A DNA stretch of 64,000 nt from Lingula anatina (taxonomy: Eukaryota > Animalia > Brachiopoda), in assembly GCA_051362555.1 (NCBI GenBank), contig CM120642.1:4464001-4528000 (forward strand), given 5' to 3'. Below, piece by piece: positions 1 through 57,908 of this stretch; within the stretch, counting starts at the first letter, position 1, and each line of letters begins with the position of its first letter. Both the position numbers and the translations under genes were made by a program. Under the pieces are notes generated by a model, which saw only the letters and a program-made list of their open reading frames with translations, made no database searches and was not told the origin of the DNA.

Positions 1-3000
1 TCTCATTTTGGCTAAGTATTTTTTGTCTGAGCTTGTGGCGTTCATTTTTAAGTAATTTTCAAGATCGTATGAGTTTTTTATTTTTCGATATGTACGCAGT
101 TTATTGTGGTTCTCCTTGTTCAATTCTTTCCAAAAAAGGTCTTCGATTTTTAGATTAATTTCTTTTTCTAGGTCTGATGTTTCATCCCAATGTTGAATTC
201 CCCAATTCTGTCTAAATGCCGCCACTGTTTTAGTCCAATTATCTATTTTCAGGAGTTTTTCTTCGCTAAATGTTTGTTTCAGTATTCTTGTATTCGGGAG
301 ATTTTTAAGTCTGGTGTGGTATTTTTGCATGGATTTAATTATATCTGTAAGGATTGGGTATCTACCCAATTCTGCTCTGCAGGCATTATTACTGGCAGTT
401 TTTCTCACTCCTAATACCCATTTGCACATTTTTAGGTGAATTTGCTCGAAGGACGTGTTATTGATTTTATCTAGGCTTAGTGATTTTTCTTTGAGAATTT
501 CCTGACCCCATACCTCGCTACCATATAGTAAAATTGGTTTTACAGTTTTATCAAATAGTTTCATTTGTAATAGTGGATTAGATATGTTTTGGGAGGATAA
601 AGTGCTTTTAAGCGCAAACATGGCCTTCATTGCTTTTTGTTTTAGATTGTGTATTGCTTTCTTGAGGTTACCTGTATTGGTGAAGGTGATACCTAGATAA
701 GTATATTCTGTAACGTTTTCCAGGATATTTTCATTTATTGTGAATTTTAGGTGCTGTTCTGTTTTTCCAGCTTTGTTGAAAATTAATATTTTGCACTTTT
801 TCTCGTTTACCTGGAGCTGCCATTTTTTGCAGTATTTTTCAAGGCGTGACAATGATTTTTGCAGGCCATCACTTGTTTCTGAGAGTAGTACCAGGTCATC
901 AGCATACAGTATATGAAATAGTCTTTCATCGCCATTTGGGTTTAGGGCAGTTTTCACATCATCAATAAAAATGTTAAAAAGGACTGGACTTAGATTGTCG
1001 CCTTGCTTAATTCCCAATTTAGAATAAAATGGTTCTGTGTATCCTTCCCCAACCGATATCCCTAGTTTTGTTTGACTGTACATTGCTTTGATTAATTTGT
1101 AAAATTTTCCCCCAATACCCAGTTTTAGTAGTTTGTACATTAGACCTTTGTGCCAAACAGTGTCAAAAGCCTTTTTAAAGTCAATAAAACATGCATAAAG
1201 ACGCTTGTTTTGGTTTACGTATCTATTAACTAAAGATTTTAAGGTAAAAATGTGGTCTGTTGTGCGGTATCCTGGCCTAAAACCAGCTTGCTCTTCACTG
1301 AGTAGATGTTCATTCTGCAAATAGTCAGTCAGTCTCTTACAGAGTATTGAGTTAAACAGTTTCCCCAGACAACTGGTGATGCACAGTCCTCGATAATTTG
1401 ATGGATTCATATGTTCACCACTTTTATGGATAGGTATGATGATGCCAAGGTTCCAAGTGTCGGGAATTTCAGTGGTATTGAGGATAAGATTAAAGATCTT
1501 TGTGATAACAATTGCTAGGTACTGGGTTCCTACTTTAAGCATTTCATTCTTAATTGCATCTTCCCCAGCTGCTTTCCCACTTTTAAGCTTTTTCAGGGCA
1601 TTTTTCACTTCATGACATGTTATTGCACTGTCTAGTATTGGAATACCCTCTTGTCTTTCCATCTCTTTTAACGGGGCATCGATTATGTTGTTTTCTTTTG
1701 GGGCAATCCCACAAAGCTGGTGAAAGTGTTTAAGCCAAATGTCTGGACTAATTAAGTTGTGCCTGGTTTCTTTTTCTTTCAGGTTTTTAAAAACTTCCCA
1801 GAATTCTTTAGGGTTTTTCTCTTCGTTTTCGAGTAATCTTTTAAGTAGAAAATCTTTGTGCTCCCGTTTTTTACGCTTAATTAGTTGCTTATATTTTCTA
1901 GAGGCTTCATGGTAGGTGTGGGCAACAAAGTTGTTTCCTGGGTTGTTCTGTAGCAATTTCCCAAGGTGCTTTATATTGCGCCTGATTTCGGCACATGTGC
2001 CGTCAAACCAGGGGTGTTTTTTCACTCGTTTTGTCTTATTAGTTCCATTTCTAGGAGGCTTTCTCTTTGCCAGTGATTTATTAGCCGCATTACAAAGAAT
2101 ATTTTGGAGTTCATTACAAGCTTTGTTCACTCCTTCTTTAGTGTTAGGGAAGTGGGTGCATTGGAGTTTGCTAATTTCATTGATCGATTCATCATCTTCT
2201 AGAGCGTTTAAAAATTTTTCAGGCGAGTCTGGTTTCCAAATGTACTGCTCGTTGAATCTGTGAACTGTTGTTGAGATAGCAGATTTTTGTATGACATTAG
2301 TACGTATTGATAGTTCTAGCAGGCAGTGATCAGATAAATAATCAATGGGGTGTATTGTGAAAAAATTTACATCGCTAAGCAGCCCATCACTCACAATAGC
2401 ATAGTCTACAGTGCTGCAGCCCTGTCTGTTATAACATGTAAAATAGCCTAGGGAGTTTCCTATTGTTCTCCCATTCAATATTTTCATGCTACTTGCAATA
2501 CATAAATCTACCAAAGTTCTCCCCTGGGGGTTGATAACCGAATCTAAGTTGTTTCTTTGAAGGCAGATTCTACTTGTGTTGGGCTTGTTTGGTATCATTG
2601 CACTAGGTGTATTTTCACAAACAGTAGTGTCTTGTAAATTTCCAGTCCTTGCATTGAAATCCCCTAACAAGCAAACTGTGCCAGAAGGTGCATACGCAGC
2701 TATCTCACTCTCTAAAATTTCAAAGGTACTTTCATCCAGTGCTCCGTTACTGGGCTTAACATACACGGCGCACAGGTATAAATCTTGCTGGAGTCCAAAG
2801 CTTTGGCTAGAGAGTCTTACCCACAGTATGTTTTCACTTTTGCTTTCTAACATTTCAACTGCCCCACTATATTCCTTTTTATAATAAACTACAATACCGC
2901 CAGAGGGTCTTCCCTTAACTTTTCTTTTTTTCCTCAGTTTTTGAAAGTGCCCATGTGTGCCTGTGGGTAACACTACTTTGGAACGCTCTGTGCTAAAGGT

Positions 3001-3213
3001 TTCTATACATGCAAATATATCATACTTTTGTACTATAGAGATAAAATTGTCATCTGAAAGTTTGTTTGCGAGGCCCCTGATATTTCTCATACCTATGTGT
3101 AACATATTTCTTGGTACAAGTAGGTCTCGGTGTTTGACTGACTTAATCACATGGTTGACCATATACAAAGATTCTACAATCTCATGCCAAATGTATAACA
3201 CAGGCTTTTTCAT
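1..3213 (-). CDS. LINE ORF2: apurinic-like endonuclease + reverse transcriptase (partial, open at window edge)
   Basis: The first ATG after an in-frame stop is at 3213 (others at 3162 and 3105). APE motifs RNIRGL, ACIET, GDFNAR, STVDYAIV and SDHC are present, as are RT motifs QAGFRPG, FIDFKKAFDTV, QGDNLSP, LYADDL (892-909, same frame) and YLGI. The ORF track lists no minus-strand fragments here, consistent with one unbroken frame. Confidence 0.93.
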   Translation of the reverse strand, partial: MKKPVLYIWHEIVESLYMVNHVIKSVKHRDLLVPRNMLHIGMRNIRGLANKLSDDNFISIVQKYDIFACIETFSTERSKVVLPTGTHGHFQKLRKKRKVKGRPSGGIVVYYKKEYSGAVEMLESKSENILWVRLSSQSFGLQQDLYLCAVYVKPSNGALDESTFEILESEIAAYAPSGTVCLLGDFNARTGNLQDTTVCENTPSAMIPNKPNTSRICLQRNNLDSVINPQGRTLVDLCIASSMKILNGRTIGNSLGYFTCYNRQGCSTVDYAIVSDGLLSDVNFFTIHPIDYLSDHCLLELSIRTNVIQKSAISTTVHRFNEQYIWKPDSPEKFLNALEDDESINEISKLQCTHFPNTKEGVNKACNELQNILCNAANKSLAKRKPPRNGTNKTKRVKKHPWFDGTCAEIRRNIKHLGKLLQNNPGNNFVAHTYHEASRKYKQLIKRKKREHKDFLLKRLLENEEKNPKEFWEVFKNLKEKETRHNLISPDIWLKHFHQLCGIAPKENNIIDAPLKEMERQEGIPILDSAITCHEVKNALKKLKSGKAAGEDAIKNEMLKVGTQYLAIVITKIFNLILNTTEIPDTWNLGIIIPIHKSGEHMNPSNYRGLCITSCLGKLFNSILCKRLTDYLQNEHLLSEEQAGFRPGYRTTDHIFTLKSLVNRYVNQNKRLYACFIDFKKAFDTVWHKGLMYKLLKLGIGGKFYKLIKAMYSQTKLGISVGEGYTEPFYSKLGIKQGDNLSPVLFNIFIDDVKTALNPNGDERLFHILYADDLVLLSETSDGLQKSLSRLEKYCKKWQLQVNEKKCKILIFNKAGKTEQHLKFTINENILENVTEYTYLGITFTNTGNLKKAIHNLKQKAMKAMFALKSTLSSQNISNPLLQMKLFDKTVKPILLYGSEVWGQEILKEKSLSLDKINNTSFEQIHLKMCKWVLGVRKTASNNACRAELGRYPILTDIIKSMQKYHTRLKNLPNTRILKQTFSEEKLLKIDNWTKTVAAFRQNWGIQHWDETSDLEKEINLKIEDLFWKELNKENHNKLRTYRKIKNSYDLENYLKMNATSSDKKYLAKMR

Positions 3214-3510
3214 ATGTACACGACTTTACGCAACCTTTTCAAAGGAATTACTTATTCACTGTATTTTTAATTTTCCCTATTTTCAAAGTAAGCAGTCTTT
3301 GCACTATAGGTGAGTTCAGAATACTATCTATTTTTCTCTATGAACCATATTAGGAGAGAGGTAGTTTTACTTACAGTTTTCCATTGCCTCTCATTTATTT
3401 AGTACTTAATCTTCATGGCATCAGGTATAACTTAAATTTTCTGTTACTTACATTCTGCTTGTTGTTACTTCAGCCATTTGATCATAGCATATAGCAGCAT
3501 GAGACAGTCT

Positions 3511-5700
3511 TTACCTCAATTTGCTTTGTAATTTGTTTAAGCAGTCACACAGTGTTCGTAGTTCATTTTGAATATCACTGTCTTGATTTCTGCCTGGTTG
3601 CATATAAGGTCCACGGTGTACTCCACTAGTGCCTCTTGGGGGGAGTTGGTTACGGTGGGTCCTCTGGCCATTTTGAGAGTGCTGGGGGGTCCTTGTGTGT
3701 GATGGTAGATCCCTTGGTGTTGATGTAGTTGGGGCATGTGTGTATCTGGCCTGACCAGTTACAGTTTTAATGTTACAGGCAAGTAATGTTGTGCCTTTTT
3801 GGTTAAGGTGTATTCCATCTCCCACAAAGAGGTCCCTTCTGCTGTAAATATTGTCGTTTTCCATGTATATCACATTTGCTTGGGTGGCACAATACTCCCT
3901 GATGAGTTTGTTTGTTTCCTGCGCTTTTTGGTTAAAAGCCCAGTTATTCCACCTGGGTAGAATGCTGCTGACAATAATGGTGGTATCCTTATATCTCCTG
4001 CGTGTAGTGGTGAGTAGCTCCTTGTTTATATTCAGGATATCTTGTGGCTGTTGTCCGCTGCTAACATCATTTGACCCAATTACAAAAGTAATTGTTTTTG
4101 GCTGACCAAAGTCATTCTGTGCTATGACTGTTTTGGCATCTTTGGTTTGTTTGCCTCTCATTGCGATACATTTGCTTTTCGTGCGAGGAAATAGTTTCTG
4201 AGGGACGAGTCCTTTCCCGATTGAGCCCGAGATGACTATGTTTTCCCATGTTGTATTTCGCCTCGTCTGGCTTTCATTTGGCTCATTTTCAATTGTCCCT
4301 GTGCCCCTGCTTTCTGATTCAGTCATATCCAATCTGCTGTCATATGTGTCCTGGGTAGGCTCAGGTGTGACTTCAATTGTGAGGGGTGTTACTAGGGGTC
4401 TATTGTTATCAGGTTCTGTGACTGGAATGGCACTGCTTTCTGATTCATTCATCCCCAGTCTGCTGTCGTTTGTGTCCTGGGTAGGCTCAGGTGCGACTTC
4501 AATTGTGGGGGGTGTTACTAGGGGTCTGGTGTTGTCAGGTTCTGTGACTGAAGTGGCACTGGTGATGTTGATGTTATCATCTTGGTGGTCATCCGCTGTG
4601 CACTGAGTGTTTTTATCTATTTTAACTATTGGAGATGGCTTGCACAATTCCTCATATTGTGTGCTTTTGTCTATGTTTGCAGATGAATCACATTGTACTG
4701 CCACTTCAGCGCTCCTTTTGTTAGCAGAGGACACCTGTGTGCGCAAGCTGTCCATTTCTGTTGCCAGCTTAGCTACTTGACTTGTTAACAGTGTTAATTG
4801 TTTTAACACCTCATTGTGATTTGCAGATACTATCTCCAAGACTGCCTCCTTGTTGTTGGTTTTGGTTTCCTGTCTTTTGAAGTCAGTTGTTTGTAGTAGA
4901 ATCTGAGTGTACTGGTTTTCTACCGCCTGCAATGTTTCCTGCATTCTGTTTATGTCCCTGTCTCTCCTCATCTCCTTTAAGTTTGTACAGTTTTTAGTTT
5001 TGAAGCCTTTAGGTGAGGTTTGGGAAACTCTTCTTGATTTAAACCCTAGTTTTGGTGTGGTTTGTCCTGTGTCAGGGTGCTCTGGTGTGGAGACTTTTGC
5101 TGTTTCATTGTTAGTTTCTTCACAGTACTCCATTGAAGTTTCTCTGATCTTGTTACTTGGTTGCACTGTCTTGGGTGATGAAATCAATAAAGCGATTTTT
5201 GGGTAATCATGGGCTAACCATAGGATATATCCGGCCCCCTGCACATGAATTTTCTTTGATTTGGCTGTGTGGTAGAAGGTTAAAGAAATTCCTCCTAGGT
5301 TTACTCCTTTTGGGCTGCTGTACTGGAATTTTAGCTGACGTCCAGTGCCTGCGTTCACCTCGTAGTCTTCTGATGGAATATGGTACTGACGACATGCTTC
5401 TAACCATCTCTTCACCACATTTACTGTGCTCATTGCTACTGTGGCACATTGGCTATTGTGGGTAACTGCCTCGACGTTAGGGCCAAAATACTGCTCTGAA
5501 TAGTCATAGTCACTTTCAATACCCATGTCTGAGTCATATTTCTTTCTGTTAACTGGGTTGATAAGCGTGAAATAAGCCTCACTTACTAGTTGGAGTGAAT
5601 CTTTGCCATTAGGTTCATTGATCTTTGAGATGTAGGCCTCCCTAATCTCCTCACTTTTGCAGCTTTTGTCCACTCCAAGTACAGTGTAGAGGTCCTCCAT
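3511..5700 (-). CDS. LINE ORF1p, 729 aa: J-domain-like N-terminus, coiled coil, Pro/Thr repeats, SGNH-esterase-like domain
   Basis: DLYTVLGV..SEEIREAY..SEAYFTLINPVNRKKYD is DnaJ-like. The heptad region is LKQLTLLTSQVAKLATEMDSLRTQV. SGNH blocks are ISGSI, IGSNDV, VSSILPR and DGIHLN. Confidence 0.88.
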   Translation of the reverse strand: MEDLYTVLGVDKSCKSEEIREAYISKINEPNGKDSLQLVSEAYFTLINPVNRKKYDSDMGIESDYDYSEQYFGPNVEAVTHNSQCATVAMSTVNVVKRWLEACRQYHIPSEDYEVNAGTGRQLKFQYSSPKGVNLGGISLTFYHTAKSKKIHVQGAGYILWLAHDYPKIALLISSPKTVQPSNKIRETSMEYCEETNNETAKVSTPEHPDTGQTTPKLGFKSRRVSQTSPKGFKTKNCTNLKEMRRDRDINRMQETLQAVENQYTQILLQTTDFKRQETKTNNKEAVLEIVSANHNEVLKQLTLLTSQVAKLATEMDSLRTQVSSANKRSAEVAVQCDSSANIDKSTQYEELCKPSPIVKIDKNTQCTADDHQDDNINITSATSVTEPDNTRPLVTPPTIEVAPEPTQDTNDSRLGMNESESSAIPVTEPDNNRPLVTPLTIEVTPEPTQDTYDSRLDMTESESRGTGTIENEPNESQTRRNTTWENIVISGSIGKGLVPQKLFPRTKSKCIAMRGKQTKDAKTVIAQNDFGQPKTITFVIGSNDVSSGQQPQDILNINKELLTTTRRRYKDTTIIVSSILPRWNNWAFNQKAQETNKLIREYCATQANVIYMENDNIYSRRDLFVGDGIHLNQKGTTLLACNIKTVTGQARYTHAPTTSTPRDLPSHTRTPQHSQNGQRTHRNQLPPRGTSGVHRGPYMQPGRNQDSDIQNELRTLCDCLNKLQSKLR
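4307..4552 (-). repeat. Two-copy 126-bp (42-aa) in-frame repeat inside ORF1
   Basis: VTEPDNTRPLVTPPTIEVAPEPTQDTNDSRLGMNESES versus VTEPDNNRPLVTPLTIEVTPEPTQDTYDSRLDMTESES. Confidence 0.9.
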
Positions 5701-5900
5701 ATTGTCTCTCTTTACTCTTCTATGCCTGCCACTTTATAATTCAATGTTTTCTCAGTATCCTGATTCTTTTTTGCTATGAAATATTCTCTTGGTGTTCAGT
5801 CTTACTTTAGATGGATGTTCATCCTGTTATAGTTGATCTTGCATTTATGGTAACCAGTGATTATGTGAATCAATCAGAGACCTTTAAACACATGTCCTGT

Positions 5901-5916
5901 GCCGGCGGCCATCTTT
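5901..5916 (-). promoter_or_regulatory. YY1-like motif at the putative LINE 5' end (internal promoter)
   Basis: The minus strand reads AAGATGGCCGCCGGC, close to the YY1 consensus AANATGGCGGC seen at LINE 5' termini. Confidence 0.4.
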
Positions 5917-6566: not shown

Positions 6567-7888
6567 AGCGCGAGCTGAGGTATTGATCCCACACTTGGCC
6601 AACACTCAAGTATGGCAGATCGGCTGGATACAAGCCTGTGATAAAATGGAGTTCATCAACACTTACGGAGAGGATGGACAGTAAGTCGCAATTTAGCTGT
6701 CTAATTTATTTTTTCTTCCCATGGGGCGGCCCAAATCAGTCTCAATTTTTTTACACTGAGTTTCAGAGTTTTCATGGGTTGTTTAGCCGAATGGAGCGGA
6801 AGAAAAAAGGGGATCGTTTTCTCTCGCTTCTCCGCCTACATGTATATGTATAACGTTATCACTGTTATGGCAAATGTGAAATATGCCTAGGTACAAAAGT
6901 TCACCGATGCTAAAATAAATTATCGTAGAGATAATTTATATGATACATAATGTATAAATTTATATATGTTGTACTGATAGGCATACATGTATGATAGTCC
7001 GGGTGATAAATTATACAAGTTAAATCAGCAGGTCGTTTCCCAGACCTTTTTTGTCGCTGTTGTATACACAGGCATATTGATTAATTTATGAATTGATTTA
7101 TTTCGATTTGCAGTACTTCTTGGGAATTTCCAGAATTGATCTCCGGCAAACAGAAGATGATCAGTGATTCAGACGGGACCCACTACCCCTGGTACGGGTC
7201 CAGAACTGAGGTGAAAACTGTGCACGGCCCCTGCCACATGAAGCGCGTGACAGTGAGTGTCAGCGACAATTTCTACCCAAAGATCACGTGGAAAATACCG
7301 CTGTTGCCAGAAAAAAGCGCATACCTCACGCGGGTGTCACGTGACCAGAGTTTCTACACTTGGCTCGTCGCCAAAAACTTGATTGCTAACCGCATATATG
7401 TATTGAAAACCATACGATGGGAAATGTCGCTGGATATTAAAGTGGATGTTACCAAGTCCATAGGAAAGAGAGCAACATTAGTGGGCCCAATGACTCAAAA
7501 GCAGCCGGAAATTCTGGAAAATGACGTTGCTATTCCGGCGAATGCTCTCCTAGAGCCAAACGCTAACAGTGCCCAGCGGCTGGTATGGCGGGGTACGGAT
7601 GGAGGGTTTTCGGTCATTGTCCCGCCAAGGTTGAGGAACTATAAGTGCCCGCCTGACTGTCTCATCTGCTGCACTCAAGGAACGTCAACGGACAGAATTC
7701 AAACTGAAATGAAAAATAAAGCAGTTCAGATAGAGGTGGAGGAACATGCCCCTCGAGCCCCTACGAGTGATGTGAATGGCAACACGGCGCCGACAGATGT
7801 ACCAAAAATCACATCTATCCCAACTGGTGAATCGGTAAATCCGCCCAGTAAGAAGTTATCTCGATCACCTATTTCAAACAGCGGTTGA
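6567..7888 (+). CDS. FAM78: FAM78 family protein, last two coding exons (6567-6680, 7114-7888); earlier exon(s) upstream of window
   Basis: The spliced reading ..WQIGWIQACDKMEFINTYGEDG|HTSWEFPEL..ISDSDGTHYPWYG..DNFYPKITW..RDQSFYTWLVA..PNANSAQRLVWR matches FAM78A/B. Splice sites are canonical AG/GT with consistent phase 2. Confidence 0.92.
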
Positions 7889-8992: not shown

Positions 8993-11830
8993 CGCCATGC
9001 ATGTCCTACTGCCCTTTCATCGAAAAAAGCTATTTTCTCGTCTTGTGGGTGGAGATATTTACCAGATATGTTTTTTTTTTTTTTGGAACGATTCCCTCTT
9101 CATAGGGGCTCGCTTAAACTAAAACCGTCCCGATGTGAACCGCCTTTAATACCATTGTGCCTTTTATCGCCATAGGTGAAGCAAACAATGTCTCACTAAC
9201 TAAGTGTGATGGTAAAAAAAAGTCATCTATGTAGGAACGCTCCGTTCCAGGTTGTCAAACAAGGTCTAGTGGACATGATGAACTTCAATGTTCATGAGAT
9301 TACCATGTTCGGGGCCTGGCTTGGCTCGGAAAGAAATGCAGCACCCAGGCTATCAGTCGTAACTGCAGATATATATACGTGTACGTCCAAACTGGTCCTC
9401 TCCGTGAGAAGGTAGAAAGTTTCCATTTGATCACCTATCCGCCGACCAAGTTTACCTGGCTCCGTGGTAGCTCCGCCGACTTGGACGCAGGCAGACAATC
9501 ACACGCGGGTTCGAGTATGAGAATGCGACTACGATATTTTTTTTTCCAGAAATAATTTGCAAAAATTGCGTTTGGTTACTATAAGAGGAAACTCGTAGGT
9601 ACGGAGGGGGGCGGGTCAGTCACGGAGCAGTCGGTAGCGTGCAAGGCTCCAAAACACAAATGCAAAACCGTCAACAACCATGGTGACGTAGAGTCACGGG
9701 TTCGAATCCCAGATGACGCACATCAGTCCACCACAACATCAGCAACATCGACGTCGAACTGGCCATGTGACCGGAAGGCCACAGGAACGAATGCAGGCTA
9801 TCGTGGGTCCGCGCAAATTACCTTTTGCATCATTAATAAAATAGTTGTTGTTACAGAGATGCATCTATGAAGATCTTACGTCTTTTTTAGTAGATTTATT
9901 TCCTAACGATATATACGGTGATTTGATATGAACCTTTTGCAGAAAGAACGGCATAGTTTACAATAAGTGATCGATTTGAAATCGACTTTTTGCTGGTCAT
10001 TATCATCAAGTCTGCATCGTCAATAATACTTCCTTTCTCTTCAATTAAAAGTCCTTAAAATGATGCTGACGAGAGGAAACTCATTGATCTCTATCTTTTT
10101 CCAGGTACGTCACAGGTCAAACTTGAATTGAGTCAATTGCTGACTCGACAATACGCCATGCATGTCATACTGCCCTTTCATCGAAAAGTGCTATTTTCTG
10201 CAAGAAAAGTTTTCATTTTTTATTTAATTTTTTTATTATTATTTATTTATTTATTTATTTATTATTATTATTTTTTTTTTTTTTTTTTTTTTTGAAAAGT
10301 TTAAAAGAAGTGTTATCGCTATTGCTTTACCCATTCATACATTCTTTTCAATGCCCTTTGCTTATCAAGCCTGTTCGTACAGTGTATGGTCAAACATTCC
10401 CCGGGGCAATTCCACAGTCTACATTTCAAATGGCAAAAACTACTCAAAACTAAAATCGTCAAGGTGTGAACCGCTTTGGATCTCAATGTGTTCTATAAAT
10501 CCTCGTGTGAAGTCAAATGTGACCTCAGTGTAACACAAAATGAAAATAAAAGCATTTGAAGTCATACAGCTAGGAACCTTGCAAGCAGGCTTATCAATAA
10601 AAGCGACCGAGGTTGAAATGATTCAGTTACTTTCCCGGTATACAGTAGACCACTTCACTTCACCCGTAAACTGCATTCAACAGAAAAAGTTGTTATCTTG
10701 TGGGCGGAGTTATTTGCCAGATACGTTTTTTTTCTCAAAATTTGCATCGTCGCAATTTATAGAATGGAAAGCGCACCAGTCTTTACATATTCGAGAGGTT
10801 TTAACTATTCCCTCTTGCTTAAACTAAAACCGTCCCGGTGTGAACCGCCTTTGATACCATTGTGCCTTTTATCGCCATAGGTGAAGCAAACAATGTCTCA
10901 CTAACTGAGTGTGATGGTAAAAAAAGTCATCTATGTAGGAAAGCTCCGTTCCAGGTTGTCAAACAAGGTCTAGTGGACATGATGAACTTCAATGTTCATG
11001 AGATTACCATGTTCGGGGCCTGGCTTGGCTCGGAAAGAAATGCAGCACCCAGGCTATCGGTCGTAACTGCAGATATATATACGTGTACGTCCAAACTGGT
11101 CCTCTCCGTGAGAAGGTAGAAAGTTTCCATTTGATCACCTATCCGCCGACCAAGTTTACCTGGCTCCGTGGTAGCTCCGCCGACTTGGACGCAGGCAGAC
11201 AATCACACGCGGGTTCGAGTATGAGAATGCGACTACAATTTTTTTTTTTTCCAGAAATAATTTGCAAAAATTGCGTTTGGTTACTATAAGAGGAAACTCG
11301 TAGGTACGGAGGGTGGGCGGGTCAGTCACGGAGCAGTCGGTAGCGTGCAAGGCTCCAAAACACAAATGCAAAACCGTCAACAACCATGGTGACGTAGAGT
11401 CACGGGTTCGAATCCCAGATGACGCACATCAGTCCACCACAACATCGACGTCGAACTGGCCATGGGACCGGAAAGCCACAGGAACGAATGCAGGCTATCG
11501 TGGGTCCGCGCAAATTACCTTTTGCATCATTAATAAAATAGTTGTTGTTACAGAGATGCATCTATGAAGATCTTACGTCTTTTTTAGTAGATTTATTTCC
11601 TAACGATATATACGGCGATTTGATATGAACCTTTTGCAGAAAGAACGGCATAGTTTACAATAAGTGATCGATTTGACATCGACTTTTTGCTGGTCATTAT
11701 CATCAAGTCTGCATCGTCAATAATACTTCCTTTCTCTTCACTTAAAAGACCTCAAAATGGTGTTGACGAGGGTAAGCTCATTGAACTCTATCTTTTTCCA
11801 GGTACGTCACAGGTCAAACTTGAATTGAGC
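8993..11830. repeat. Tandem duplication: copy 1 ~8993-10135 (internally deleted), copy 2 ~10154-11830
   Basis: About 1 kb is near-identical at an offset of ~1704 bp (e.g. identical ORFs 9292-9498 and 10996-11202). The start CGCCATGCATGTC recurs at 8993 and 10154. Confidence 0.93.
9614..9719 (+). other. tRNA-derived/Pol III-box-like segment (second copy ~11320-11424)
   Basis: D-arm-like GGAGCAGTCGGTAGCG, CTCCAAA loop-like sequence and a perfect B box GGTTCGAATCCC. The cloverleaf does not close cleanly. Confidence 0.4.
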
Positions 11831-53500: not shown

Positions 53501-56500
53501 GTAGATTTCAAATATACCCTCGGATTTGACCTTTGACCTTTACTTCAAGGTCAAATGGGCCAAAATTTTCAAAAAAATGAAATTTTTTACGAAAAAAAAA
53601 TTTTTTGCCCTGTTATTCAGACACCACACAGACTTAACCAATAATATTATTGGAAAGTGTTACCCTTCAGGTCATCTTTCATCTCCGTGAATTTGGGGTC
53701 AATCGGTGCATTTTCACAGGAGTAGCGGCCATAAGATACCGAAACTGAAAACTGTCTCTAATTCGGGAACCGTTAATGCTAGAGACCCATTCTTTTTTGC
53801 ATTTTGTAGAGCATGTAAAGCCCAACACTGGAGGTGGTCTCGGTTTTTTTGTATTCCATACGGTTTTCGAGTTACGCTGTATCAAAAAGTACATATTGGT
53901 GGTGAAAGGAAAATGTACGGAAGCCCACTGGTGCCATATGTAGAAAAAAAAATTATCTCGAAATTTCGAGATACTGTTTTGAAATTTGAACAAAAAAATT
54001 TACCACCAGCGTTAGCGCTGGCGGTACACATGGTTTCGGTCCCATCCGTTCCGTTCCGCCGGCTCCGCCGCCATGTTACCGTTACCGCTTCTCCTCCTAG
54101 ACGGTAAGGGCCCCCGTACCCATCTCATGGATTTAGGTCACCTATAATCTCAACTCGTTCCACGTAAAATTTGGGCTTTGTCGGTATTGGGGTCTGGGTG
54201 TGGCACTCATTGCAATGCACCCTTGTCTAAAAATGGCAAAATTAAATGCTAATTATCTACCCTACAGAAGGAGTTACGGGAAAAATTTCTATAGACGGCT
54301 TTCCAAAAGTCATATGTGTAGATTTCAAATATACCCTCGGATTTGACCTTTGACCTTTACTTCAAGGTCAAATGGGTCAAAATTTTCAAAAAAATGAAAT
54401 TTTTTACGAAAAAAAATTTTTTTGCCCTGTTATTCAGACGCCACACAGACTTAACCAATAATATTATTGGAAAGTGTTACCCTTCAGGTCATCTTTCATC
54501 TCCGTGAATTTGGGGTCAATCGGTGCATTTTCACAGGAGTAGCGGCCATAAGATACCGAAACTGAAAACTGTCTCTAATTCGGGAACCGTTAATGCTAGA
54601 GACCCATTCTTTTTTGCATTTTGTAGAGCATGTAAAGCCCAACACTGGGGGTGGTCTCGGTTTTTTTGTATTCCATACGGTTTTCGAGTTACGCTGTATC
54701 AGAAAGTACATATTGGTGGTGAAAGGAAAATGTACGGAAGCCGACTGGTGCCATATGTAGAAAAAAAAATTATCTCGAAATTTCGAGATACTATTTTGAA
54801 ATTTGAACAAAAAAAATTTTTATCTCGAAATTTCGAGATAGCATTTTGAAATTTGAACAAAAAAAAAATTATCTCGAAATTTCGAGATAGCATTTTGATA
54901 TTTGAGCAAAAAAATTTATCTCGAAATTTCGAGATAGTATTTTGAAATTTGAACAAAAAAAATGCTATCTCGAAATTTCGAGATAATTTTTTTTTTCAAC
55001 ATATGGCACCAGTCGGCTTCCGTAAAAATGTGCAGTACGGTAATGGATAATAAATTTTGAACTCCGGAAAAATAAAACATAATGCTTGGCAAAGCAGACA
55101 ACTTGTGGTCAAAAATGACATTATTTTATCAAATTTAAACTTCTGCAACTTCAGAGAACCTCCCATTTCAAGAACTTTGACCAAAATGACCTTTTCTTTA
55201 TTTTAATTAATTTTTTCTGTAGGAAATTTATGGCACATTATGGTAACTCCAAAATTATAACATTTAGTCCCTTATATCTCCAAAACTGGCAGAGATAGGT
55301 CCATAGTTACTATTGAACTTGAATAGGAAGTCATATACTGGCAATCTTACTGTGACCTTGACATTGACCTTTGACCTACTTTTCACCATGAACTGAACTT
55401 TGCAAATTTTGCTTCCCTTTTATCTCCAAAACTGGCAGAGATAGATCCATAGTTACTATTGAAGTTGAATAGGAAGTCATATACTGGCAATCTTACTGTG
55501 ACCTTGAAATTGACCTTTGACCTACTTATCACCATGAACTGAACTTTGCAAATTTTGCTTCCCTTTTATCTCCAAAACTGGCAGAGATAGGTCCATAGTT
55601 ACTATTGAACTTGAATAGGAAGTCATATACTGGCAATTTTACTGTGACCTTGAAATTGACCTTTGACCTACTTTTCACCTTGAACTGAACTTTGCAAAAT
55701 TTGCTTCCCTTTTATCTCCAAAACTGGCAGAGATAGGTCCATAGTTACTATTGAACTTGCATAGGAAGTCATATACTGGCAATTTTACTGTGACCTTGAA
55801 ATTGACCTTTGACCTTCTTTTCACCATGAACTGAACTTTGCAAATTTTGCTTCCCTTTTATCTCCAAAACTGGCAGAGATAGGTCCATAGTTACTATTGA
55901 AGTTGAATAGGAAGTCATATACTGGCAATCTAAATGTGACCTTGAAATTGACCTTTGACCTACTTTTCACCATGAACTGAACTTTGCAAATTTTGCTTCC
56001 CTTTTATCTCCAAAACTGGCAGAGATAGGTCCATAGTTACTATTGAAGTTGAATAGGAAGTCATATACTGGCAATCTTACTGTGACCTTGAAATTGACCT
56101 TTGACCTACTTATCACCATGAACTGAACTTTGCAAATTTTGCTTCCCTTTTATCTCCAAAACTGGCAGAGATAGGTCCATAGTTACTATTGAACTTGAAT
56201 AGGAAGTCATATACTGGCAATTTTACTGTGACCTTGAAATTGACCTTTGACCTACTTTTCACCTTGAACTGAACTTTGCAAAATTTGCTTCCCTTTTATC
56301 TCCAAAACTGGCAGAGATAGGTCCATAGTTACTATTGAACTTGCATAGGAAGTCATATACTGGCAATTTTACTGTGACCTTGAAATTGACCTTTGACCTT
56401 CTTTTCACCATGAACTGAACTTTGCAAATTTTGCTTCCCTTTTATCTCCAAAACTGGCAGAGATAGGTCCATAGTTACTATTGAAGTTGAATAGGAAGTC

Positions 56501-57908
56501 ATATACTGGCAATCTAAATGTGACCTTGAAATTGACCTTTGACCTACTTTTCACCATGAACTGAACTTTGCAAATTTTGCTTCCCTTTTATCTCCAAAAC
56601 TGGCAGAGATAGGTCCATAGTTACTATTGAAGTTGAATAGGAAGTCATATACTGGCAATCTTACTGTGACCTTGAAATTGACCTTTGACCTACTTTTCAC
56701 CATGAACTGAACTTTGCAAATTTTGCTTCCCTTTTATCTCCAAAACTGGCAGAGATAGGTCCATAGTTACTATTGAAGTTGGATAGGAAGTCATATACTG
56801 GCAATTTACTGTGACCTTGAAATTGACCTTTGACCTACCTTACAATGAACTTAACTTTGATTGCACCATTTTTAGTTATATATATTTTTTGCATATTTTG
56901 AAAATTCTTGTTGATTGCATTTTTACAGCTTGTCAAGCACAAGACTGGTGGCTGCACCCCTTATTTTGTGTATGTGGGGGTCTATACGAATGCGCTTGCT
57001 CCAGCTGGTGGTACAATATTCGGAGGCGGTATCGCCTCTCTGATCCTCTAGTTATTATTATTATTAATATTATTATTATTATTGATTTATTGTAGTATTG
57101 AGTTTTGCTTCTTATCACTAGTTTAAAAGTAGTCATCATTTTAGATATTTCATATTGATTTAAAATGCAGGAAATTCATAATGATAAAAACAGTAATTAA
57201 AAAAGCATGAATTTATTTCCAGGCAGTCCTTCCAGACCACAAGGTACGTTACCTGCCTGGAATATGGAGTCCACAGGCTATAATAAAAGCAGTGCAGTGC
57301 GGGATAGATTTATTTGACAGCACGTATCCTTGACATTGCTTTATACCCTCGGTATTATATAGAACTTTTTATCATTGTTTCATATAAATGTTTTGTAAAA
57401 TAAGATAAAAGTTGTGTCCTTGACTGGTATCTTCAGCTATCCTTACTTACTCACAGAGAGAGGGTGTGCTCTTGTGTTTCCCTTCAAGGTTTCACCTGGT
57501 CTCACTGATGAAAATATTTGGAACAATGAAGCCTCATATCACATTGACTTGAATGATAAAAGGTAATGTTTAAGTATGGTGTATTTTTATTATTTTTATT
57601 ATTATTGTTACCTTTTTGGTAATTAATGTTGTTTCATAACATAATATAAGAGTGAGTATATACACACACAGACTTTTTCATATTTATTTAAATGTATTTG
57701 TAAAACATTGCATGTCGACTTCTTTATTTTGATTTGGCATAATGTTTATATCTATCTGTGCATTTTTTTTCAGATATTTTGATGACTTCACACCACTTTT
57801 AAAAGGTTGTGAATGTTACACCTGCCAGAATTACACCAAGGCCTACTTAAACCACCTGTGCAACACTGGGGAACTTCTCAGAGGAGTGCTGCTCATGATG
57901 TAAGTATG

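Follow-up and report, generated by a model that had tools for sequence, protein, structure and literature searches.

A J-like domain without HPD in a Lingula anatina LINE ORF1 protein and its HPD-bearing relatives

The ORF1 protein of a LINE in the Lingula anatina genome begins with a J-like domain in which the HPD motif is missing. The main interest of this domain is the family to which it leads, ORF1 proteins of LINE type whose J-domains are well conserved. Within that family, the HPD-less copy is a derived form and probably inactive. The element lies at the start of a 64,000-nucleotide stretch of contig CM120642.1 (assembly GCA_051362555.1, positions 4,464,001 to 4,528,000, forward strand), which we refer to as the window. 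Its features are collected in Table 1.

Table 1. Features of the LINE in the window, in ORF1-to-ORF2 order (window coordinates)
Feature	Coordinates	Strand	Remarks
5' UTR	5701..5915	-	Element 5' end at ~5914-5915, from loose contig ends at 5914/5915
ORF1	3511..5700	-	729 aa; ATG at 5700, end at 3511
J-like domain	5527..5700	-	Residues 1-58; four predicted helices, without HPD; PF00226, model, fold match
Shortened helix II-III junction	5599..5631	-	Residues 24-34; ~8 residues including HPD missing; exact gap position depends on alignment
Unnamed conserved alpha/beta domain (domain 2)	5185..5478	-	Residues 75-172; predicted TBP/KA1-like fold; common to 45/68 matches
Predicted coiled coil	4696..4968	-	~Residues 245-335; sub-threshold coiled-coil Pfam matches
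Two in-frame 126-nt tandem copies	4302..4553	-	42 codons each; 88-89% alike; in low-complexity ORF1 linker
SGNH/GDSL esterase	3772..4248	-	Residues 485-643; Ser, Gly, Asn, and Asp-x-x-His motifs present
ORF2	1..3225	-	APE endonuclease and reverse transcriptase; 1075 codons from preceding stop; open to window edge

The window element, its 5' end, and its copies

The window element is an APE-type non-LTR retrotransposon (LINE), with ORF1 followed by an APE-RT ORF2 (Pfam matches RVT_1, 146.7 bits, and Exo_endo_phos, 30.9 bits). Contigs from sequencing runs define its 5' end. Element-side contigs in runs X2 and X10 pass beyond 5914/5915 into differing flanks, and flank-side contigs in X1, X2, and X5 pass into non-element sequence, as at an empty site. 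These are dispersed insertions with a common 5' end, as in APE-type non-LTR retrotransposons. The ATG of ORF1 lies ~215 nt inside this contig-defined end, which makes the J domain a part of the element. This bears out a first-pass annotation, made from the letters of the DNA, in its claim of a captured J fold in a LINE. A chance fusion with a host DnaJ exon was ruled out, as the frame starts inside the element 5' end and the same build recurs in the family. The first element bases (5904-5915, minus strand) presumably correspond to the YY1-type initiator motif of the human L1 5' end; a short upstream ATG frame begins at these same bases.

Contigs of X2, X4, X5, and X10 cover the J region without gaps and carry the same HPD-less segment, so the segment that the first-pass annotation proposed looking for in other copies is present there. 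These runs come from four studies, one of them possibly the source of the window itself. Differences to the window numbered 2 in X2 (over 5000-5915), 0 in X4, 4 in X5, and 7 in X10 (over 5558-5707). Assembly error as the origin of the deletion was ruled out by these gap-free contigs. One further X10 contig is missing 61 nt of the J region. Summed depth over ORF1, which is not a copy number, was ~3 to 4 times that of the flank in X1 and X10, and in X2 and X5 it was about the same as the flank. Within the same species, a diverged family agrees with 5500-5559 at 49 of 60 nt, with the HPD region outside the visible part. Among the 13 of the listed ORF1 variants that were tested, those in the J region comprised 3 synonymous and 3 nonsynonymous changes, too few to speak to selection. 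In three RNA runs, of which 6 to 25% each was read, only 30, 4, and 64 reads fell within 6.5 kb, and the J region had none in the part read.

Beyond the element, the plus strand of the window holds sequences at 6569-6684 and 7113-7888 that we take to be probable host exons resembling FAM78; they had no Pfam or NCBIfam match. The LINE lies upstream of them on the opposite strand. A ~0.9-kb duplication (9109-10042 and 10814-11739) has copies 96 to 99% identical and 1.7 kb apart, and a tandem array at 55268-56859 consists of 10.9 copies of a 146-nt unit that are 96% alike.

Domains of the ORF1 protein

Translation from the ATG at 5700 confirmed the first 60 residues as they had been written in the first-pass annotation, which described them as an HPD-less J-like module opening the protein. 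That description agrees with the profile and fold evidence. The PF00226 (DnaJ) match spans residues 3-56 and the whole profile (positions 1-63 of 63), with 29.2 bits in the whole protein and 37.6 bits for the segment alone (cut-off, 27.8). A profile of 20 HPD-bearing J segments from outside the family scored the real 60-mer at 54.9 bits, compared to at most 13.6 for 2000 shuffles; the 54.9 bits are inflated, as the 20 segments were themselves matches of the query. In an AlphaFold2 model of the first two domains (41-row alignment), helices span residues 4-8, 16-27, 33-47, and 49-58, the mean pLDDT is 90.6 (85-95 across residues 1-60), and the pTM of 0.80 is compatible with a fixed packing of the J-like domain against domain 2. 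In structure, residues 1-62 match a J-domain protein best (Z 10.4, rmsd 2.0, 62 aligned), with the next J-domain at Z 9.2. A two-copy complex prediction for residues 1-175 scored 0.11 against a mark of 0.42.

The window J region comprises 55 residues, ~8 fewer than the ~63 of its relatives. It thus reads as a deletion that removes the end of helix II together with HPD, rather than as a swapped loop. The earlier description, an HPD loop replaced by a shorter ISKINEPNGKD, was correct as to shortening and loss of HPD but not as to replacement. At the positions of K/R26 and Phe47, the window has Ile and Leu, and the net charge is -1; the reading of K26 depends on where the gap is placed. The Arg 11 residues before the HPD His is kept. 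With a four-helix J fold and no HPD, the domain is a J-like protein domain as PMC3196505 uses that term.

Domain 2 was modeled alone with a pLDDT of 95.3. Its best fold matches were KA1 (Z 8.2, rmsd 3.3, 91 aligned) and BamC, followed by the N-terminal domain of RNase H3 (Z 7.5, rmsd 2.6, 69 aligned), with the METTL16 VCR next at Z 7.4. The fold label thus stands on tied rows at Z 7-8, which are near background and tied with unrelated rows. No Pfam family was above cut-off; the RnlA N-domain appeared in 5 of 25 members (best E, 0.018) and DUF3378 in 1. There was also no PDB sequence match, and Foldseek searches of PDB and BFVD gave nothing at E <= 0.001. Several folds resembling domain 2 bind nucleic acid or membranes, and an RNA-binding role for it would be a guess by analogy.

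Farther along the protein, the heptad a/d positions of the coiled coil are hydrophobic in 9 of 10 cases (from residues 288-302). The esterase scored 39.1 bits with PF00657 and 37.1 bits with PF13472, and the GDSL/SGNH match covers residues 515-641. An SGNH domain with its catalytic motifs thus stands behind a coiled coil, as in an esterase-type (type IV) ORF1p.

The layout is that of the type IV ORF1p of CR1/L2 and RTEX elements (ZfL2-1, RTEX-n_BF, RTEX-1_SK; PMC3905857, PMC4120745), in which a coiled coil and then an SGNH esterase lie upstream of an APE-RT ORF2. According to Table S1 of PMC3905857, the RTEX_BF/SK ORF1 coils lie at ~270-460 and the esterases at ~470-720, leaving the first ~270 residues without an assigned domain. 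By position, these are close to the coil and esterase of the window (245-335 and 485-643) and of its amphioxus relatives. As far as their available text goes, the CR1/L2/RTEX papers give the N-terminal part no domain, whereas that of the window is a J-domain plus a TBP/KA1-like domain. The term "DnaJ" gave no relevant match in the accessible text of PMC3905857 (including the supplement file searched), PMC4120745, PMC11203168, PMC13343379, or PMC9004415, and PMC3753637 and PMC8616336, in the portions available, speak of host J-proteins only. A full-text literature search, with subscription journals and Repbase Reports outside its scope, returned no J-domain ORF1p in the accessible text. Repbase probably holds ORF1s of such a build, and existing families there may well share the same architecture.

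J-bearing relatives and their HPD motif

Searching residues 1-180 against 1.84 billion representatives gave 68 matches. Those with domain 2 number 45, and the other 23 are unrelated J-proteins. PF00226 was found in 35 of the 45. A profile of domain 2 alone picked out 14 proteins among 7980 candidates scored, 13 with PF00226 and the last with a cut J piece; 8 of these 14 were already known, and the profile had been built from J-linked members. Since both searches were seeded with such members, the coupling of J-domain and domain 2 may be overstated.

Long members have a common build of J-domain, domain 2, an optional PHD or PHD-like finger, coiled coil, and SGNH esterase. An SGNH-like domain is present in 18 of the 21 family proteins of at least 600 aa (5 of them had seeded the profile). 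The only taxon names that the sources give for relatives are Branchiostoma belcheri and B. floridae. Near-identical sets occur on different large contigs (8 members at >=90% on 8 contigs for P0085, 9 for P0035), as expected of repeats; separate assemblies could also explain them. Several relatives are annotated just as hypothetical or uncharacterized, and two are labeled CbpA. The family J profile scored bacterial and eukaryotic J-domains alike and so singled out no J donor. One member, P0036, has at residues 704-839 a NADAR-like domain ahead of the esterase (E 3e-7, under the Pfam cut-off).

Other searches were narrower in yield. A word-indexed search with residues 1-180 returned 361 candidates, none at E <= 0.001, and a search for very long fusions returned 1 J-bearing protein, which was unrelated. 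Scanning metagenome, viral, and prokaryote contigs with alignment A3 turned up no relative, nor did viral contigs yield one with P0002 as the query. A second metagenome contig scan gave two loci, L001 and L002, of which L002 matches the J part only.

Locus L001 encodes P0002, with a J-domain bearing HPE, domain 2, an esterase, and two zinc knuckles, and an APE-RT frame follows immediately. From ORF2 motifs, we take the ORF2 of the window to be RTEX-like and that of L001 to belong to the CR1/L2 group. The two ORF2s are 25% identical over 534 residues. Identity between L001 and the window is 31.5% in the RT core, 40% in the J-domain, 31% in domain 2, and 31% in the esterase. ORF1 normally diverges much faster than RT, so an exchange of ORF1 is the likely reading of these values. 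This suggests that ORF1 moved between distant LINE clades, a kind of exchange that has been described (PMC4120745). In the amphioxus gene model P0088, a short terminal piece resembles the window APE (13/23 identical, E 3e-5, pairwise comparison); the pairwise comparison of P0088 with the L001 ORF2 showed no such APE match. BLAST of both ORF2s against all proteins collected gave nothing at E <= 0.001. ORF1-ORF2 adjacency was thus read at two loci, the window (HPD-less) and L001 (HPE), and the 30 HPD-bearing relatives are known as proteins, which leaves their association with an ORF2 indirect.

We compared the J-domains in an alignment of 53 rows. Ten rows without a complete J region were left out of the tree, leaving 42 relatives and the window. 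HPD is intact in 30 relatives, a one-residue variant is found in 4, and the motif is absent from 8, as it is from the window. The first-pass annotation had proposed looking for HPD in related elements, and its emphasis on the HPD-less state gives way here to the finding that this is a minority state. With 30 of 42 keeping HPD, the captured J-domain was most likely a working one. The HPD-bearing set includes near-copies, and its pairwise identity in domain 2 has a median of 40% (range, 26 to 99%).

Around the motif, the HPD members keep K/R at His-7 (23/30), K/R at His-11 (28/30), K/R after HPD (30/30), and the helix-III Phe (30/30). Helix II Arg26, HPD, and Phe47 have been reported to matter for J function and Hsp70 interaction (PMC1906734), so the residues kept are at positions reported as needed for that interaction. 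Helix II and the loop together carry a net positive charge in 29 of the 30 HPD members and a net negative charge in each of the 9 HPD-less members, the window included; all 9 keep the hydrophobic core residues. Loss of the basic surface together with retention of the core speaks for a retained scaffold rather than an Hsp70 decoy. Two HPD-bearing members, P0020 and P0029, have esterase catalytic motifs that look degenerate; the HPD-less window keeps its own.

Loss of HPD took more than one form. Six amphioxus proteins (P0014, P0041, P0042, P0050, P0088, and P0096) have a longer helix II-III segment in place of HPD and no deletion. Placing all 13 non-HPD rows in one clade was rejected (p-AU 0.009), while a single clade of the 9 fully HPD-less rows was not (p-AU 0.246). 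The window branch is very long in the tree (3.26). In the esterase tree (19 rows), the window groups with HPD-bearing members (support, 82/88), apart from the amphioxus group. Decay of HPD at least twice is supported by these trees. An ancestral HPD rests on its being the general state of J-domains, the tree being unrooted.

Proposed role of the J-domain and alternatives

Selfish elements with J-domains of their own are known. Polyomavirus T antigens and Rki/057w of phage RB43 (PMC3486835) redirect host Hsp70 in this way. Those J-domains are viral and have tested, HPD-dependent activity; that of the window belongs to a non-LTR retrotransposon, lacks HPD, and is known from its sequence. J folds without HPD are found in Pam16/Tim16 and in Arabidopsis CJD1/ARC6 (PMC3196505), and CJD1 is described there as an interaction module, not an Hsp70 co-chaperone. 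These are host organelle proteins from an unrelated context, whereas the window has lost HPD by outright deletion and has homologues of like build that retain the motif.

We therefore considered what the window domain may be doing. It very probably does not stimulate Hsp70. Its conserved core suggests that it has probably been kept as a structural or interaction module. It could instead be a vestige: a J-domain that was active in the past, is now in decay, and survives just because the ORF1 start codon precedes it. We consider this unlikely. A vestige would account for the very long window branch, for the joint loss of HPD and of the K26 and F47 equivalents, for the 3 of 6 J-region variants that alter a residue, and for the X10 contig with its 61 missing nucleotides; it sits poorly with core residues kept in 9 of 9 HPD-less members, with a model that is confident throughout residues 1-60, and with a diverged same-species family that still matches 5500-5559.

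The first-pass annotation had named an Hsp70 decoy as one possibility, and this is more doubtful still. Such a domain would bind host Hsp70 or, in the manner of Tim16 with Tim14, a J-domain of the host; it would not stimulate its partner and would shield the particle from chaperone-driven disassembly. The helix-II surface that contacts Hsp70 is net negative in every HPD-less member, and in the window this surface and the helix-III Phe were lost along with HPD, which weakens the proposal. An HPD-less J-like domain also neither bound Hsp70 in a two-hybrid assay nor complemented (PMC3196505), even though the same source describes binding of J-like domains to J or J-like partners (Tim16-Tim14, CJD1-ARC6) and the window does keep its Arg at His-11. 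That most relatives are ordinary host J-proteins, with a few LINEs having picked up or adjoining such a gene, is very improbable, given the esterase, the coil, and in many cases the PHD that they have in common with LINE ORF1s, the near-identical sets on many contigs, the ORF1-ORF2 layout of L001, and the position of the window J frame inside the element's defined 5' end, although the HPD-bearing relatives are known from proteins rather than loci and several bear uninformative annotations.

Taken together, we favor an explanation in which the window J-domain, having lost HPD along with its basic surface, is likely a scaffold, in a family whose HPD-bearing relatives likely recruit Hsp70; as a whole, we hold this to be reasonably likely. 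The J-domain match, the deletion, the place of ORF1 upstream of an APE-RT ORF2 in two elements, and the pattern of conservation in the family are what the data show, and the steps that follow are inferred in turn. In this scaffold model, an ancestral esterase-type ORF1 would have acquired a working J-domain and, with it, the TBP/KA1-like domain. ORF1p, multimerized on its own RNA via the coiled coil, would present J-domains, and these would set off ATP hydrolysis by the host's Hsc70 on the retrotransposon particle. Hsc70 might then fold or activate ORF2p in cis or remodel the ORF1p coat. The ORF1 module would have moved between distant ORF2 clades, and HPD would have decayed at least twice, in lineages where the helical core stayed on as a cap, with a structural or partner-binding role. 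In the window lineage, this scaffold would sit on the neighboring domain 2.

That the HPD-intact relatives are LINE ORF1s with working J-domains we judge slightly more probable than the opposite. The broader proposal is evenly balanced, namely, that they represent a widespread, undescribed invertebrate class of LINE ORF1, in at least two distant clades, whose own working J-domain would recruit Hsp70 to build, activate, or uncoat the particle as a counterpart of the T-antigen J-domain. If true, the J-domain and the unnamed TBP/KA1-like domain would join the list of ORF1p modules, and some of the "DnaJ genes" tallied in invertebrate genomes and in metagenomes would be transposon ORF1s. With a LINE family that brings an HPD-intact J-domain of its own, Hsp70 would be linked directly to retrotransposition, and natural HPD-loss lineages such as that of the window would be its built-in controls.
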